From UHGV virus genome UHGV-1946153: a DNA stretch of 13,440 nucleotides, one strand, 5' to 3'. The stretch's first letter is position 1. Every line of letters starts with the position of its first letter. Positions 2,676 to 8,728 of the stretch are shown here, piece after piece. The DNA comes from a virus. Made by a program: the position numbers and the translations under genes. A model generated the notes under the pieces. That model made no database searches, was not told where the DNA came from, and saw only the letters and a program-made list of their open reading frames with translations.

Positions 2676-3122
2676 TCAATCTCCTTTGGTACCAATGTTT
2701 ACAGCCTGGCAAGCCTCTTTGAGTACCCAATCAACAGCGTCTTTCCATGCTCCGGTTTCGACTGGCGGATTTTCACGTTTAACCTGTTCATAGAAACGCA
2801 CGGCTTTAACCAGTCCTTCTGATGTCACCGGGACTGGCGGGGCAGTGAATAAGGCCTGAATCTCATAGCTCGGCCTGTCGTTGCAATCCTCTTTTGTCGG
2901 TACATATTTCCAGTCACCAACCCACGGCTCCCCCTGAGAGTCCGTAACGCCTTTTTTCACGTAGCGATATCGCCACGCTACAGGCTCCGCTTCCAGCGAT
3001 GCCAGCGCAATCCGTGCCAGCTCTTCCGCTTCTTCTGCTGGCAGTACAACGTTGCTACCAGGTCCGTATGTTTCGCGCCACTCCTTGATTGTCAGCAGTC
3101 GCTCTTTGGTAATAGTGGTCAT
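2676..3122 (-). CDS. Hypothetical protein, 148 aa, with shared N-terminal IALASLEAEPVAW module
   Basis: ATG at 3120-3122 preceded by AAAGGAGAG. Its stop is 1 nt from the next start. Contains ARIALASLEAEPVAW, paralogous to the neighbouring gene. Confidence 0.65.
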   Translation of the reverse strand: MTTITKERLLTIKEWRETYGPGSNVVLPAEEAEELARIALASLEAEPVAWRYRYVKKGVTDSQGEPWVGDWKYVPTKEDCNDRPSYEIQALFTAPPVPVTSEGLVKAVRFYEQVKRENPPVETGAWKDAVDWVLKEACQAVNIGTKGD

Positions 3123-5088: not shown

Positions 5089-5571
5089 TTATTTGATAAG
5101 AAGTGAAGGTTTCCCAACCTTGAGTTGAGCGCCGGGGATATTTATTCCTGCTTTTAGTTGGTGCTTGATTGCCAACTTGTCGGCTTTAATTGTCGTTTCG
5201 AACTCAACGTATTCAGGAGGAAGGGCGCTTGAGTCGATGATTTCTACAGTTTCTGACGGTTTGCGGATTGTTACCTGGTGAATACCTGCTCTAATCTTTT
5301 TCTTGCCAACCATTTCAAGCGATGACGCTATATATGATTTGATGCTGTCAATCTTATTTTGAATTACTGCGGCTCGCTCATTCAGCGACTTTGCCTCTTC
5401 CTTGAGGCGTTCAGCATAACCAGATTCATTTTTAATGACGGAAAGAAGTTGCTCTATTTTATCGGTAAATTCTCCTTCCATGCCTTCTATTGTGTCAGCA
5501 ATCATCTCTGGTTCTAAATCTGAATCCATCAATTTTGCGTATTCATTGGCAATTTCATACAGTTTGCTCAC
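5089..5571 (-). CDS. Siphovirus Gp157-like protein (recombination-module accessory), about 160 aa
   Basis: GTG start at 5569-5571 with GGAGG and a 6-nt spacer; the track ORF starts at TTG 5577. Acidic helical N-terminus then ...GKKKIRAGIHQVTIRKPSETVEIID...LPPEYV...GAQLK resembles the Gp157 family as recalled. Lies immediately downstream of recT. Confidence 0.65.
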   Translation of the reverse strand: MSKLYEIANEYAKLMDSDLEPEMIADTIEGMEGEFTDKIEQLLSVIKNESGYAERLKEEAKSLNERAAVIQNKIDSIKSYIASSLEMVGKKKIRAGIHQVTIRKPSETVEIIDSSALPPEYVEFETTIKADKLAIKHQLKAGINIPGAQLKVGKPSLLIK

Positions 5572-6457
5572 TGGCAACCTCCAGTTTCGCTTTGCATTCT
5601 GCGTAAATGGCTTGTACGTTCTGCTGCAATTTCATTCCAGATGTCAGGCGATATGCTTCTGCAAAATATCGCTTCAAATCATCCATGTTTTCTGCCTGAG
5701 CCATTTCATCGCAAAGAAGTTGTGCTTTATCCATTATTTCCTGCTGGCGTTTCCGTTCATCTTCGCGGATATCTTCCTCTGATTTGTGCGGCATAACTGG
5801 TTCCTGATGCATACCTTCATCTTCGTTAAGAAGGTGAATGGCATTATCCAGTCGCTGGGCTTTAGGCCAGTATTTGCTGGCGCGTTTAACTATTGTTTTA
5901 CGCGCCATCTCTTCCCAGAATGTTTTCCACGGTCCATTCTTTGCCTTGCTCGTTGCTTCCACAGCTTTAATTTCTGCCAGACTCATTTCTTCAGTCAGGT
6001 AGTCACCATCTGCTGTTTTAACCGTGCAATAACCTCCAACAATAGAGCCTCGCTCACCAAATGCGTTGTATTTGTGGGTTGGTGCTGAATCAAGGCCATT
6101 TGATTCATAGGTGTCGTTTGAGTACACCAGTTTGCATTGCCCCCACTTAATTGATCCTGTCGATTGCGCAAGATGAAGTAATCCCATGTAACTGATATCA
6201 AGGCACACCATGCCGTCGCGAGGAACCAGATAAGCCAGTTTGCTGGCCGGGTTTAAGGTGATGCCGATCGCCGCAACATTGATGATGGCGTTCTGTGCGC
6301 TGGTTGGATTTGCCAGTGCTGTTTTAGCCAGGTAATCGTTTTTCTGGAAATACTGAATTGCAAACTGGCTTTCCTTAGCCCATGTCACCGTCTGTTCAGT
6401 CAATGCTCCGCAGAATAACTGCTCCTGCTGTTTAACGAATTCAACGATATTGCTCAT
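5555..6457 (-). CDS. recT: RecT-family single-strand annealing recombinase, 300 aa
   Basis: Motif GPWKTFWEEMARKTIVKRASKYWP matches the RecT signature of the Rac prophage protein (GPW...HWEEMAKKT...R..KYLP). RBS GGAG 7 nt before the ATG at 6455-6457; ATGA overlap with the upstream gene. Confidence 0.9.
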   Translation of the reverse strand: MSNIVEFVKQQEQLFCGALTEQTVTWAKESQFAIQYFQKNDYLAKTALANPTSAQNAIINVAAIGITLNPASKLAYLVPRDGMVCLDISYMGLLHLAQSTGSIKWGQCKLVYSNDTYESNGLDSAPTHKYNAFGERGSIVGGYCTVKTADGDYLTEEMSLAEIKAVEATSKAKNGPWKTFWEEMARKTIVKRASKYWPKAQRLDNAIHLLNEDEGMHQEPVMPHKSEEDIREDERKRQQEIMDKAQLLCDEMAQAENMDDLKRYFAEAYRLTSGMKLQQNVQAIYAECKAKLEVASEQTV

Positions 6458-6765
6458 GCAGCTTCTCCAAAAATGTGTCTGCGTTTGAATATTGCGAAGG
6501 CATATTCAGCCTTAACTCTTTCGGTTATTGCATCCCAGAACCATTCAGCGGCTTTTTCCTGATAGTTACAGTCATCATCTTCCAGCCAGTCGATAGCGTC
6601 CTTAGTGTGTTCATCTGGTTTATATGAGCGAAGCATTTCGCTTATTGGGTCGCAACGTTTGCAGAGACGATCAACTTCACTGTTGATTCGTTCGTAATCT
6701 TCATCAGTAAAACTTGCGATTATTTGCGATATTTCACGCTTATCATTCAGAGTCAGAATCATCAT
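6454..6765 (-). CDS. Hypothetical protein, 103 aa
   Basis: ATGATG start at 6760-6765 with CAGGAG upstream. Acidic, Trp-rich. Sits where lambdoid phages place host-nuclease inhibitors, but no similarity was recognised. Confidence 0.6.
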   Translation of the reverse strand: MMILTLNDKREISQIIASFTDEDYERINSEVDRLCKRCDPISEMLRSYKPDEHTKDAIDWLEDDDCNYQEKAAEWFWDAITERVKAEYAFAIFKRRHIFGEAA

Positions 6766-6850
6766 CTTTCTCCTGTTCTTTGTGCTGATTGAGCATTTTG
6801 TTCATCTGACGAATGAATTCTTCGTCTGACCAGTTATCTGTAAAACTCAT
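6743..6850 (-). CDS. Possible small ORF, 35 aa (not in the ORF track)
   Basis: Hand-translated: MSFTDNWSDEEFIRQMNKMLNQHKEQEKDDDSDSE. Its start overlaps the stop of the upstream 50-aa ORF (ATGA at 6847-6850). Weak RBS and it overlaps the next gene by about 23 nt. Confidence 0.2.
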   Translation of the reverse strand: MSFTDNWSDEEFIRQMNKMLNQHKEQEKDDDSDSE

Positions 6851-6999
6851 TTCCTGCGATACCACGGAAGGTTGATAGCTGATTTCATCGCTTTATTTGC
6901 TTCAAACCACATTTTTGAATCACCAATAAATCTGGCTATTACTGCTTTGTTCTGTGCAGCACGAAGCATCTGGTGATTAATGGCTATTTCATTGCGCAT
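6847..6999 (-). CDS. Small protein, 50 aa, possibly Kil-like (not in the ORF track)
   Basis: Hand-translated: MRNEIAINHQMLRAAQNKAVIARFIGDSKMWFEANKAMKSAINLPWYRRK. RBS GAGG 7 nt upstream. It sits just upstream of the recombination genes, like lambda kil, and the FIGDxKM segment resembles lambda Kil as recalled from memory. Confidence 0.4.
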   Translation of the reverse strand: MRNEIAINHQMLRAAQNKAVIARFIGDSKMWFEANKAMKSAINLPWYRRK

Positions 7000-7038
7000 A
7001 ATAAGACCTCAACTCTTTTCCATCCGTCACGTAATTTA

Positions 7039-7048
7039 NNNNNNNNNN
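7039..7048. other. Assembly gap / masked bases (10 N)
   Basis: Run of N characters in the intergenic region. Confidence 0.99.
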
Positions 7049-7146
7049 GTGATTCGTTCAAGTAAAGATTCATTTAATTGGAAGGCACCCATGCGAGCGC
7101 CTCCCGCGATTGCGTAAATCATGGGTGGTTCCTTATGTTGGTTTTA

Positions 7147-8115
7147 TTAGTAGGTTATTTTTGTTGCGAATACTTCGCCTTTTACGATGGCTGTTATGAT
7201 ATTTTTAGCAACATCTTCTGGTGCGCCAACCTTGATAAGGTCAGCAAGTATTTTGTTATTTACTTCTTTCCGGTGAGCTTTATCCTTTGCTCTACGCTCT
7301 TCTTCGTCCTTGATTCTTTTTTCTTCTGCTATTCTGGCTTGCTCTTTTGCTTCAGCCTCGCGCCGGATTCGTTCAGCCTCCTCCTGTGCTTTTCGGCGTT
7401 CTGCTTCAATTGCCGCCTGCTTTTCTCTTTCAGCTCGTTCTGCTGCCTCTTTTGCTTCGCGCTGTGCTCGTTGCTCGGCTTCAATGCGTTCACGCTCTGC
7501 ACGTTCCGCTGCGGCCTTAGCTTCTGCTTCTCGCCTTGCTGCTGCTTCAATTTCGGCTTTTGCCTTTGCTTCGGCTTCAGCTCTGGCTTTCTCTTCAGCT
7601 TCTCTTTGTAAGCGTTCTTCATGCTCTCGCTTTTCCTGCTCCGCTTTGAGTCTTGCCTCTTCTCTTTGGCGGTCAAATTCGCGATCCATCAAAATCGCTA
7701 TTTCATGGTCAGACTCAATTTGCTTTGCGAGAGCTTCAGCTGCTGCCTTAGCTTCTTCTTCGGCTTTAATCCGCGCCTGTTCTTCCTCATAATCAGTAAG
7801 AGGCTGGCGCGCCTTGGCTTTCAGTTCATCAAGGCGATCGCGCACTGTCTTGCGGTTGGCATCAATTAGCTTTGGAATTTCCTTCAGTTCAGCAACAAGG
7901 TCTTTGCCAAGACCATCGAGATATGTTTTCGTCTGCGCAACTTTATACGCCAGAGAAGCGATCTCCTTTCTGCCCTTTGCCGTTGTGATATCAGGCACAA
8001 AGGACATAACTTCACGTTCAACCTTTTGAAGGATTTCTTCAATCTGGTCGGCAGACTGAAATACAGTCATTGCATTTGCTTTTTCAATAACAACTAAATC
8101 TGTTACTTCACTCAT
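7147..8115 (-). CDS. Hypothetical protein, 322 aa, with a long Glu/Ala/Lys/Arg-rich helical region
   Basis: ATG at 8113-8115 with GGAGG 4 nt upstream. A globular N-terminal domain is followed by about 170 residues of EAKR-rich sequence typical of a single alpha-helix or coiled coil, then a short C-terminal domain. Confidence 0.75.
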   Translation of the reverse strand: MSEVTDLVVIEKANAMTVFQSADQIEEILQKVEREVMSFVPDITTAKGRKEIASLAYKVAQTKTYLDGLGKDLVAELKEIPKLIDANRKTVRDRLDELKAKARQPLTDYEEEQARIKAEEEAKAAAEALAKQIESDHEIAILMDREFDRQREEARLKAEQEKREHEERLQREAEEKARAEAEAKAKAEIEAAARREAEAKAAAERAERERIEAEQRAQREAKEAAERAEREKQAAIEAERRKAQEEAERIRREAEAKEQARIAEEKRIKDEEERRAKDKAHRKEVNNKILADLIKVGAPEDVAKNIITAIVKGEVFATKITY

Positions 8116-8151
8116 ATATCCTCCATCAAAAAATCGCCCTCACATTGGAGG

Positions 8152-8225
8152 NNNNNNNNNNNNNNNNNNNNNNNNNNNNNNNNNNNNNNNNNNNNNNNNN
8201 NNNNNNNNNNNNNNNNNNNNNNNNN
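8152..8225. other. Assembly gap / masked bases (74 N)
   Basis: Run of N characters between the 322-aa gene and the AT-rich cassette. Confidence 0.99.
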
Positions 8226-8257
8226 TCGTTGGAATGAATACACAGTGCTTATTCGTA

Positions 8258-8728
8258 CTAATAAAACACCCAATTTTCTGTTTCTTGGTTGTGTCCAAAG
8301 TTATATTCAATATCTGGTGTTGATGTATCAATATTCTTCATCCCATCAACAAGAGTTGATACAACAGCTAAATCTTGTTTGATTCGCATCAAATGGTATT
8401 TCTTCCGGCGCAATAAACTTTCAATGGCAAGTTTCTTCGTTGGGAATGCAAAAGATCTTTCTGCATTTTTTGCTACTTTCTTAATTGCATATCTATTTCT
8501 CCTTTGTTTCCATTCCTGTAACCACTGATTTGGTGCTGGTTTAAAATTAACAATCCAATGCGCAGGAACCAACCATGCATAATGCTCTGTCTGATGAAAA
8601 GCTATATATTGAAGTGCGAATATTTTGATCCCATCTTCTTCAACTGTCGCTTGGAATCTCCAGAAAACAGGCATTCCATCATGTTCAGTTTCTGATTCAG
8701 GAAAAGGTACGCTCCATGATTTTGTCAT
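8258..8728 (-). CDS. Hypothetical protein, 156 aa (AT-rich accessory cassette)
   Basis: ATG at 8726-8728 with a GAGGTGA RBS. Local GC looks clearly lower than the flanking DNA (estimated by eye, not computed). Soluble, Trp/Lys-rich, no recognised domain. Confidence 0.65.
   Translation of the reverse strand: MTKSWSVPFPESETEHDGMPVFWRFQATVEEDGIKIFALQYIAFHQTEHYAWLVPAHWIVNFKPAPNQWLQEWKQRRNRYAIKKVAKNAERSFAFPTKKLAIESLLRRKKYHLMRIKQDLAVVSTLVDGMKNIDTSTPDIEYNFGHNQETENWVFY

Follow-up and report, generated by a model that had tools for sequence, protein, structure and literature searches.

A lambda-type Kil peptide and a conserved Arf-like small gene upstream of recT in the virus genome UHGV-1946153

Introduction

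Kil is the textbook lambdoid inhibitor of host division, and in phage P22 the Arf protein (accessory recombination function) aids Erf-mediated recombination. The mechanism of lambda Kil has been described together with the activity of a second homologue, the shorter HK629 protein, which retains ZipA-dependent activity (PMC3961180, PMC11762379). In lambda Kil a G19-D20 turn lies between the helices, activity requires the helix-turn-helix core, and an RSK/RSSK motif is found at the C terminus of nearly all homologues (PMC11762379). The kil genes of Rac and Mu are unrelated to lambda kil (PMC3961180). The molecular function of Arf is unknown (PMC12315714), and the label "Arf-like" therefore supplies no mechanism.

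Here we analyze positions 6743 to 6999 of a 13,440-nucleotide stretch of UHGV-1946153 (the window), for which a preliminary description had proposed two small ORFs, one of them Kil-like. Our overall explanation, which we hold with high confidence, is that the region combines a Kil peptide, a genuine Arf-like 35-aa gene heading a recombination module and a mosaic joint between phage gene blocks. In this reading the two ORFs are translationally coupled small genes belonging to the early-left (pL) operon of a prophage of the lambdoid type.

Results

Layout of the locus

The features discussed below all lie on the minus strand.

7122..6984, minus strand: cIII, broken by a 10-N run; 43 aa in relatives, where it is annotated CIII
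7010..7007, minus strand: GAGG Shine-Dalgarno sequence of kil, read from the sequence, with a 7-nt spacer to the ATG at 6999
6999..6847, minus strand: kil, 50-aa product, matching PF06301 and phrog_2055
6847..6850, minus strand: ATGA overlap of the kil stop (TGA, 6849..6847) and the start of the 35-aa ORF (ATG, 6850..6848), read from the sequence
6850..6743, minus strand: 35-aa ORF, an acidic peptide heading the RecT recombination module; phrog_17766 and phrog_2123
6801..6850, minus strand: conserved 50-nt island covering 16 codons and 2 further nt at the start of the 35-aa ORF; mosaic joint
6765..6454, minus strand: 102/103-aa ORF of unknown function; phrog_3486
5555..6457, minus strand: recT, which encodes the module's single-strand annealing protein; PF03837 and phrog_148

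The gene order is cIII-kil-orf35-orf102-recT, with a Gp157/Gam-like gene after RecT, and genes for integrase, excisionase, N, CI, Cro, CII and an O-like protein surround the locus. Both ORFs of the preliminary description exist as it gave them, including the GAGG ribosome-binding site and the ATGA overlap. The position of the kil gene is that of lambda kil, overlapping the cIII 3' end upstream of the recombination genes. The preliminary description had placed these two ORFs between a 322-aa gene and the recombination genes; both are there, but the interval to recT holds four genes (cIII, kil, the 35-aa ORF and the 102/103-aa ORF), and cIII had been missed. Because 20 ORFs of at least 25 aa overlap the same 1-kb stretch, a length of 35 to 50 aa is unremarkable alone; we judge kil and the 35-aa ORF to be real through homology and selection, not length.

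The N run in cIII (7039..7048) stands where relatives have three bases, CCG, and apart from it the window matches E. coli E1. With the run replaced by the bases of relatives, the product matches PF02061 (Lambda_CIII) at 56 bits against a cut-off of 25.7. The last 16 nt of cIII overlap the start of kil. Downstream, the 102/103-aa ORF matches phrog_3486 (E 3.7e-59) and is labelled hypothetical in all relatives; the AGGAG Shine-Dalgarno sequence that serves it (6774..6770) is embedded in the 35-aa ORF, and at its end the stop shares an ATGA with the start of recT (6457..6454). It occurs together with the window's type of 35-aa ORF and with RecT in 34 of 34 full-length viral contigs. The recT assignment rests on PF03837 (E 2.5e-33) and phrog_148 (E 9e-92).

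A promoter and terminator scan of positions 6300 to 8300 gave no more than chance would (2 promoter-like sites where 2.8 were expected), and we propose no internal promoter or terminator there. Rfam gave no match across the whole window, and NCBIfam none for Kil, the 35-aa ORF, cIII, the 103-aa ORF or Arf.

The 50-aa product belongs by sequence to the lambda Kil family

The 50-aa product (MRNEIAINHQMLRAAQNKAVIARFIGDSKMWFEANKAMKSAINLPWYRRK) matches the Pfam profile PF06301 (Lambda_Kil) over all of its 31 positions (1-31) at 68.8 bits against a cut-off of 27.6, and matches phrog_2055 "Kil" over its full length (E 2.4e-35). The alignment to lambda Kil that the preliminary description had proposed gives 57% identity over 30 aa spanning the FIGDxKM core (BLASTP, E 6e-9). 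The resemblance to lambda Kil that it had noted in the FIGDxKM segment is also borne out: FIGDSKM here corresponds to FIGDEKM in lambda, and the family core L..AQ.K..IA.FIGD..M...A is kept across members.

An AlphaFold2 model places helices at residues 2-25 and 28-41 with G26-D27 between them, the counterpart of the lambda G19-D20 turn, and so predicts a two-helix hairpin (mean pLDDT 82.5; core 91-94). The best match of this model in BFVD by Foldseek is a Kil protein (E 0.025), a result to be read with the caution that helical hairpins are too generic to discriminate. The profile matches and the hairpin model uphold the Kil-like candidate, and we assign the 50-aa ORF by sequence to the lambda Kil family, as a member of the HK022/Sf6/H-19B sequence type. 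Its net charge is +6.6. The C terminus reads WYRRK, without a literal RSK/RSSK, and has a basic cluster at the equivalent place; relatives end in YRKS or HRK.

This Kil is already known. The 50 residues are identical to WP_001518153.1, annotated kil in E. coli E1, and RefSeq lists them as "host cell division inhibitory peptide Kil"; 504 contigs carry exactly this sequence under the name Kil, and the sequence type is kept intact in hundreds of prophages. The word "unannotated" in the preliminary description holds for its own ORF track but not for kil, which carries an annotation in RefSeq genomes of E. coli as well as in phage records, and the novelty that it implied falls away with the identical protein already named in public annotation. 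By homology, Kil would be produced after prophage induction or infection and would block cytokinesis through ZipA-dependent disruption of FtsZ-ring assembly, giving filaments; that this variant would target FtsZ and ZipA we infer by analogy with lambda.

The 35-aa ORF is a conserved, selected gene

The 35-aa product (MSFTDNWSDEEFIRQMNKMLNQHKEQEKDDDSDSE) matches phrog_17766 (E 5e-16) and phrog_2123 (E 3.5e-10), unnamed "MSFTDNWSDEEFIRQM" peptide families. A word-based homologue search, run with a 40-aa GTG-extended form, gave 80 matches, and the exhaustive HMMER search described below gave 29 representative clusters. At least 1000 contigs contain the exact 35-aa sequence, in every case under the label "hypothetical"; the ORF is entered as "hypothetical protein" in some phage and GenBank records, and it is absent from the annotation of one inspected RefSeq record and of HK140.

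Several observations identify it as a gene. Its frame is the only one of six without internal stops in 7 of 7 members checked. Over codons 1 to 20, synonymous differences exceed nonsynonymous ones between family members L142 and L143 (pS 0.93, pN 0.08; Fisher p<0.0001), between the window and L142 (pS 0.95, pN 0.28; Fisher p<0.0001) and between the window and L141 (pS 0.63, pN 0.26; Fisher p 0.044); over 28 codons, the window and BIS08P22 give pS 0.39 and pN 0.06 (p 0.009). The N-terminal 20 codons are thus under purifying selection (pS 0.4-1.0, pN 0.08-0.28), and the family preserves the motif M-S-[FI]-[TA]-D-[NT]-W-[ST]-[DE]-x-x-F-[IV]-R-[QL]-M. Relatives in which five different sequences precede the ORF all retain an ATGA or GTGA start overlap. 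The ATG at 6850 is the supported start, since this overlap persists even where the preceding gene offers no in-frame GTG.

In all loci inspected, the coupled start holds and the family precedes an annealing-protein gene, whether RecT, Erf, Rad52-like or AAA_24/Sak4-like. The C-terminal type of the peptide is fully linked to the downstream module. The few polymorphisms among close copies in codons 17 to 22 are all nonsynonymous, and in Erf-linked relatives the tail is unconstrained in its own frame (18 nonsynonymous versus 2 synonymous changes), with 8 nonsynonymous and 12 synonymous changes in the overlapping frame. We conclude that the 35-aa ORF is a genuine, under-annotated conserved gene.

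The peptide carries a net charge of -7.4, and its AlphaFold2 model has a helix at residues 9-29 (pLDDT 87 for residues 11-20), consistent with a predicted architecture of one N-terminal amphipathic helix and an acidic tail. Translation would run by coupling to whichever gene stands upstream. The ORF occupies a slot like that of P22 Arf, after kil and cIII and directly upstream of the recombination module, of which it is the first gene (35 aa, 102 aa, RecT, Gp157/Gam-like). We propose that the peptide may assist phage recombination as an accessory factor in the manner of P22 Arf, a role that we infer, and that its conserved N-terminal [W/F]SDEEFIR(Q/L)M helix would act on a partner common to all module types.

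The start of the 35-aa ORF is a mosaic joint

Identity to HK140 begins exactly at position 6850, and identity to mEp213 ends at 6801. The 50 nt between these points show 100% identity among phages that differ in both flanks. Among 120 viral contigs with the exact island, all four left/right combinations are seen (Fisher p 0.41). The first 50 nt of the 35-aa ORF are therefore a sharp mosaic joint between the cIII/kil and recombination blocks, which assort freely. About 30-50 bp of identity suffices for exchange driven by annealing proteins (PMC3945230), and the island would provide shared homology for exchanging the two blocks between phages. We also considered an RNA element; folding of positions 6790-6870 gave no structure signal (z -1.1), and this reading was dropped.

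The 35-aa family is Arf-like but probably lies outside the Arf family

The 35-aa peptide and P22 Arf have a local likeness. WSDEEFIRQM (variants WSDETFIRLM and WSDDAFIRLM) aligns with FSDEEFIALI of Arf, from its acidic-aromatic N-terminal motif F-S/D-D-E-E-F-I-A-L-I, and the SDEEFI codons differ synonymously between the 35-aa ORF and arf (TCA versus AGT, TTC versus TTT, ATT versus ATC). The match of the peptide to phrog_2445 "Arf" is marginal (E 0.06 across 38,880 families), and a type-B homologue bears the name "accessory recombination function protein" in one source.

The window peptide gave no match to Pfam PF17585 (Phage_Arf) at E<=1, nor did 15 family members and 3 distant members at E<=10, under a control in which P22 Arf itself scored 121 bits. 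Alignment of the two families by hhalign is weak (probability 8.7%, E 0.0038, 21 columns), an exhaustive HMMER search of 1.84 billion representatives recovered 29 relatives and no Arf, and an HMM of the N-terminal region scores Arf at 7.9 bits (E 2.4), about fifth among nonfamily matches in 19,815 ORF segments. The most conserved part of Arf, the central and C-terminal block VEQQINLAAERQN..W.EF.G, is invariant or nearly so across 19 Arf sequences; neither the 35-aa peptide nor its relatives contain it. With hhalign, exhaustive HMMER and the N-terminal HMM against decoys all below significance, we rejected membership in the Arf family and call the 35-aa ORF Arf-like.

The WSDEEFI motif might recall the C-terminal tail of SSB, DFDDDIPF. 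We do not claim mimicry of that tail; the motif is internal and has no free carboxylate.

Discussion

Four other explanations bear on these findings. The 35-aa ORF could yield no functional peptide, its first 50 nt being a homology "linker" or the whole a translated leader that feeds ribosomes to the 102-aa and recT genes. An island 100% identical between differing flanks, modules that assort freely, an unconstrained Erf-linked tail (18 versus 2), the exclusively nonsynonymous polymorphisms of close copies in codons 17 to 22 and the missing call in RefSeq annotation would all fit. We nevertheless consider it unlikely. Conservation at the DNA level only is contradicted because, in diverged members, synonymous sites of codons 1 to 20 are near saturation (pS up to 0.95-1.0) while the amino acids are kept (pN 0.08-0.28); a mere leader needs no preserved N-terminal amino-acid motif; and the stretch shows neither an RNA structure signal nor an Rfam match. 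The ATGA coupling and the opposite net charges of the two products (+6.6 and -7.4) would in turn suit a partner or antidote of the basic Kil rather than a recombination factor. We rejected this reading as very improbable: in 46 of 112 fully classified viral contigs (about 40%) the small ORF comes after a cIII-like gene of 56 aa and has no kil next to it, HK140 carries it without kil, and its C-terminal type goes with the recombinase downstream rather than with the gene upstream. A genuine small gene at the head of the recombination module accounts better for these data.

That gene might still belong to the P22 Arf family as a true though diverged member, stimulating annealing-protein-dependent recombination as arf does for erf. 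The gene slot is that of P22 (after kil/c3, before the annealing-protein gene), [W/F]SDEEFI.(L)(I/M) is common near the N terminus through different codons, both peptides are strongly acidic (-7 and -11), and the scores against phrog_2445 and by hhalign (E 0.06 and 0.0038) lean the same way. Against this, no family member matches PF17585, the invariant central and C-terminal Arf block is missing, the exhaustive profile search did not recover Arf and the motif score is not significant against decoys, which makes true membership rather doubtful; we retain the Arf-like reading. For kil, identity of only 57% to lambda Kil over 30 residues, differing termini, YRRK in place of RSK/RSSK and the existence of unrelated namesakes that act differently (P22, E 0.26; Rac and Mu, PMC3961180) would allow a family member by sequence with a target other than FtsZ/ZipA, or one inactive in this host. 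We find this quite improbable, since the helix-turn-helix core on which the activity of lambda Kil depends is conserved throughout and modelled with confidence, the shorter HK629 homologue keeps ZipA-dependent activity and the sequence type is intact in hundreds of prophages. The preferred reading of kil is that of a division inhibitor acting as in lambda.

The Kil finding itself adds nothing new, the exact protein being named in RefSeq. Three real genes of the pL operon, namely cIII, kil and the 35-aa ORF, are lost to the size cut-off of the earlier ORF track, and the last of these, skipped by RefSeq, is a coding gene under selection, present on at least 1000 contigs ahead of the modules of four annealing-protein families. 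It offers an inexpensive candidate for the class of function that P22 Arf represents and could matter to RecT-based recombineering, where accessory factors can matter. The 50-nt island is a clean, base-precise example of lambdoid module reassortment.

More tentatively, peptides of 35 to 60 aa may form a universal "front-end" adaptor of lambdoid recombination modules, with a helix for a common partner and a variable, module-specific tail, the helix-coding 50 nt being the preferred crossover site for exchanging whole recombination modules from phage to phage. If this speculative idea, which we think somewhat doubtful, were true, one short sequence would give a functional peptide and at the same time be the recombination joint by which the genes that it serves are shuffled. 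The Arf-related helix [W/F]-S-D-E-E-F-I-R-(Q/L)-M would then bind one partner whichever annealing protein follows; our guess for that partner is a host protein such as SSB or RecBCD.

Comparison with known systems

Lambda Kil (PF06301) is of the same family as the 50-aa product by profile and pairwise score, and the two have in common the FIGDxKM core and a Gly-Asp turn between two helices. Both kil genes overlap the cIII 3' end in the pL operon upstream of recombination genes, by 16 nt here and 32 nt in lambda. The window product is 50 aa long against 47 aa in lambda, with an N terminus 7 residues longer and a C-terminal end of PWYRRK in place of LKLRSSKSIH. In lambda, gam directly follows kil, whereas here the 35-aa ORF and the RecT module do. 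The Kil proteins of HK022, Sf6 (gene 31), H-19B, mEp213, Kapi1 and Louie, like WP_001518153.1, are identical to that of the window or differ by 1-2 residues, and the kil DNA of this type is 96-100% identical and annotated Kil. We see no material difference; in most of these phages kil adjoins an Erf module, whereas the module joined to it in the window is of the RecT type. Rac KilR and P22 Kil are likewise small host-killing or division-inhibiting prophage peptides of the pL operon; P22 Kil has no significant sequence similarity to the 50-aa Kil (E 0.26).

P22 Arf (47 aa, PF17585) sits in the order c3-kil-arf-erf, and the 35-aa ORF likewise lies between kil and an annealing-protein gene. Both peptides are small and strongly acidic (net charge -11 for Arf and -7 here), the window peptide being the shorter, and both carry [W/F]SDEEFI near the N terminus, with W here and F in Arf. 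The 35-aa family sits with RecT, Erf, Rad52-like and Sak4-like modules, not with P22-type Erf alone. The small ORFs mEp213 gp41, Sf6 gene 30 and HK022 p38 (phrog_2123, labelled "recombinase") have first 16 codons that are DNA-identical to those of the 35-aa ORF and show the same ATGA coupling to kil or cIII. From codon 17 their C-terminal half is unrelated. They are linked to Erf modules, and their tail overlaps a second ORF, gp40, whose frame is the one under constraint.

Gene layout upstream of recT

The window covers the early part of a lambdoid prophage. Integrase and excisionase genes lie at its left end, recT (PF03837) is accompanied by a Gp157/Gam-like gene, and further genes encode an N-like antiterminator, a CI-type repressor, Cro, CII, and an O-like replication protein. 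The nearest complete E. coli genome, that of strain E1, shows 99.5% identity across 83% of the window. All genes in the part considered here are on the minus strand:

7122..6984 (-), cIII, broken by 10 N at 7039..7048
7010..7007 (-), GAGG of kil, 7 nt upstream of the ATG
6999..6847 (-), kil (50-aa ORF), ATG at 6999, TGA stop at 6849..6847
6850..6743 (-), 35-aa ORF, ATG at 6850..6848, with the kil TGA starting inside it
6765..6454 (-), 102/103-aa ORF (phrog_3486), with AGGAG at 6774..6770 within the 35-aa ORF

The preliminary description had read the 50-aa and 35-aa ORFs, the GAGG ribosome binding site, and the stop/start overlap (ATGA) correctly from the sequence. Both ORFs do fall within the interval from the 322-aa gene to recT, but its list for this interval missed cIII and the 102/103-aa ORF. 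The cIII N run (7039-7048) reads CCG on the minus strand in E. coli E1; the 10 N thus stand for three bases, which shifts the apparent frame and hides the gene from ORF lists. With the gene repaired, its 43-aa product matches PF02061 at 56 bits. The final 16 nt of cIII also belong to kil (the overlap is 32 nt in lambda). The 102/103-aa ORF has no Pfam match, is always linked to the 35-aa ORF and recT, and overlaps the recT start with its stop (ATGA); its product may be a RecT partner.

Upstream of cIII, the 322-aa gene (7147-8115, minus strand; phrog_1376) encodes a long Glu/Lys/Ala/Arg-rich coiled-coil protein with no Pfam match, labeled "TolA," "coiled-coil domain-containing," or "hypothetical" in different records. 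The recT 3' end overlaps the longest Gp157/Gam-like reading by 23 nt (5555-5577). This reading has 162 aa and a TTG start, whereas RefSeq and the gene calls of relatives use a 160-aa start, making the start assignment uncertain. A promoter and terminator scan gave chance-level results only, Rfam and NCBIfam searches returned no matches, and RNA folding gave a z score of -1.1. With a 25-aa minimum, 20 ORFs overlap the same kilobase; ORF length by itself is no proof of a gene.

The 50-aa ORF is kil

By sequence and predicted fold, the 50-aa ORF is identified as Kil. It matches Pfam Lambda_Kil at 68.8 bits (cut-off, 27.6) and, end to end, phrog_2055 ("Kil protein for bacterial septation inhibition"; E = 2.4e-35). 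Alignment with lambda Kil from NC_001416 gives 57% identity over 30 residues (E = 6e-9), pairing FIGDSKM with lambda FIGDEKM, and the core L..AQ.K..IA.FIGD..M...A is kept when more distant Kil peptides are aligned as well. The AlphaFold2 model (14 homologues; mean pLDDT, 82.5) has helices at residues 2 to 25 and 28 to 41 separated by G26-D27, so that the helix-turn-helix core with a Gly-Asp turn needed for lambda Kil activity (Naha et al., PMC11762379) is predicted here as well. Its top BFVD structural match, Kil of Serratia phage Eta, reaches only E = 0.025. As in lambda, kil overlaps the end of cIII; in contrast to nearly all lambda Kil homologues, which end in RSK or RSSK (PMC11762379), the window peptide ends in PWYRRK. 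The earlier suggestion of a Kil-like peptide is thus borne out by the Lambda_Kil and phrog_2055 profiles, the lambda alignment, the model, and the cIII overlap, and the FIGDxKM segment does match that of lambda Kil.

The suggestion that both ORFs were unannotated holds mostly for the 35-aa ORF, but not for kil. In E. coli E1, the same 50 residues have the accession WP_001518153.1 and the name "host cell division inhibitory peptide Kil," the exact sequence occurs under the Kil name in 504 contigs of a large protein collection, and near-identical kil genes are annotated in HK022, Sf6, H-19B, mEp213, Kapi1, Louie, and others. This part is a rediscovery of a publicly named gene, and the protein is not new. 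P22 "Kil" (28001-28189 of the P22 locus, 62 aa) has a PHROG-style label identical to that of lambda Kil but shows no significant BLASTP similarity to window Kil (E = 0.26); the shared name denotes phenotype, not homology. A metagenomic lambdoid contig, L143, carries two Kil-family genes of 49 and 48 aa (1231-1380 and 2858-3004; both PF06301) in one early-left operon; after the second come the small ORF and genes for a Rad52-family annealing protein, SSB, and Abc2.

Upon induction, lambda Kil is expressed from pL and disrupts FtsZ rings, which stops cytokinesis in a ZipA-requiring manner, and the ftsZ alleles V208A and L169R confer resistance (PMC3961180). A second, shorter homologue, that of HK629, shows the same kind of ZipA-dependent activity (PMC11762379). 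Because the entire hairpin core is conserved, window Kil would probably act by homology as lambda Kil does, disrupting FtsZ rings via ZipA and blocking cytokinesis.

The 35-aa ORF is a conserved small gene

The 35-aa ORF matches two PHROG families without an assigned function, phrog_17766 (E = 5e-16) and phrog_2123 (E = 3.5e-10). The exact peptide occurs in at least 1,000 contigs, "hypothetical" every time; the ORF is annotated in Louie, 683R2, and Kapi1 and is not called in the RefSeq E. coli record inspected or in HK140. The family is narrow, with 29 clusters among 1.84 billion representative proteins searched with a profile. Its conserved part is M-S-[FI]-[TA]-D-[NT]-W-[ST]-[DE]-x-x-F-[IV]-R-[QL]-M; beyond about residue 20, the sequences split into module-specific tails.

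Among the six frames of seven members, only that of the 35-aa ORF lacks internal stops throughout. Over codons 1 to 20 of the diverged members (L141 to L143), synonymous change is near saturation and replacements are few (L142 versus L143, pS 0.93 and pN 0.08, Fisher P < 0.0001; window versus L142, 0.95 and 0.28, Fisher P < 0.0001; window versus L141, 0.63 and 0.26, P = 0.044), and 28 codons of the window compared with BIS08P22 give pS 0.39 and pN 0.06 (P = 0.009). The start overlaps the upstream stop (ATGA, once GTGA) after five different upstream sequences: two types of Kil, a cIII-like gene of 56 aa, and one further gene each in BIS08P22 (54 aa) and L142. In strict synteny, the small ORF always heads the recombination module.

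Annealing protein downstream of the small ORF
RecT: window, HK140, comparison loci L014-L020, L141
Erf: mEp213, HK542, 720R6, PhiR12_2, 118970_sal4
Rad52-family protein: L143
AAA_24/Sak4-like ATPase: BIS08P22, L142

The open frame, selection on codons 1 to 20, start overlap, and synteny together show that the ORF is coding. It is a real small gene, conserved and for the most part not annotated, that heads lambdoid recombination modules.

The first 50 nt form a module-exchange joint

The window and HK140 are identical precisely from the A of the ATG (6850) onward and unrelated upstream of it, and identity with mEp213 spans kil and ends after 6801. Several phages share just these 50 nt (6801-6850) with the window, and this island is 100% identical in phages that differ on both flanks. 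An exact-match IMG/VR scan found it in at least 120 contigs, whose flanks were classed by tblastn.

Flanks of the island (upstream gene, small-ORF tail, downstream annealing protein)
kil, type-B tail (the Erf-linked type), Erf: 48 contigs
cIII-like (56 aa), type-B tail, Erf: 30 contigs
kil, 35-aa type, RecT: 18 contigs
cIII-like (56 aa), 35-aa type, RecT: 16 contigs

All four combinations occur without association between upstream and downstream blocks (Fisher P = 0.41), indicating that the two sides assort independently; each tail type occurs with one downstream module only. Homologies of 30 to 50 bp are within the range that phage annealing proteins use (PMC3945230). The first 50 nt of the 35-aa ORF are a module-exchange joint, and an in-island crossover between an HK022/Sf6-like and an HK140-like phage would give the window arrangement.

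In mEp213 (2144-2393 of its locus), the 56-aa ORFs gp41 and gp40 overlap by 92 nt in different frames. Polymorphisms of this overlap in Erf-type loci (among L021-L140) are 18 nonsynonymous and 2 synonymous in the gp41 frame versus 8 and 12 in the gp40 frame, making gp40 the constrained frame. Constraint is demonstrable for the N-terminal part of the small-ORF family only. Both gp41 and gp40 carry a "recombinase" label, which looks like an annotation artifact.

Possible role of the 35-aa peptide

The window peptide is strongly acidic (net charge, -7.4; pI 4.3) and is modeled as one helix at residues 9 to 29 (pLDDT, 87 at residues 11 to 20) followed by a disordered DDDSDSE tail. We tentatively propose an accessory factor of the recombination module, whose translation may be coupled to that of the upstream gene and which might act in phage recombination through its N-terminal helix. 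One helix accompanies four unrelated annealing-protein families, which favors as its partner something common, such as a host protein or shared DNA intermediate, over the annealing protein.

A pure leader or linker is unlikely in view of the selection at the amino acid level; such a role confined to the tail is conceivable. A Kil antidote was also considered and rejected, as kil does not adjoin the small ORF in about 40% of contigs. The 35-aa ORF and its island offer a modest lead that can be tested, and no surprise.

Comparison with P22 Arf

In P22, the gene order is c3-kil-arf-erf, and Arf is an acidic 47-aa peptide annotated as a stimulator of Erf-mediated recombination. Arf helps homologous recombination without being essential to it, with molecular function unknown (2025 lambdoid Rec-module survey, PMC12315714). 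The Arf N terminus is MQHEFSDEEFIALI and that of the window peptide is MSFTDNWSDEEFIRQM; SDEEFI is common to both with different codons (Arf/window, AGT/TCA, TTT/TTC, and ATC/ATT), and small-ORF variants such as WSDETFIRLM are even closer to Arf.

Membership in the Arf family itself was rejected. No small-ORF family member matches PF17585, the exhaustive search of 1.84 billion representatives did not recover Arf, and the most conserved Arf block is missing from the 35-aa ORF. Profile scores are weak: E = 0.06 for phrog_2445 (Arf), hhalign probability 8.7% (E = 0.0038, 21 columns) between the two families, and only 7.9 bits for the N-terminal HMM on Arf (19,815 ORF segments as decoys). One public record names a type-B homologue "accessory recombination function protein." The 35-aa ORF resembles Arf in position, size, charge, and N-terminal motif and is called Arf-like on these grounds.
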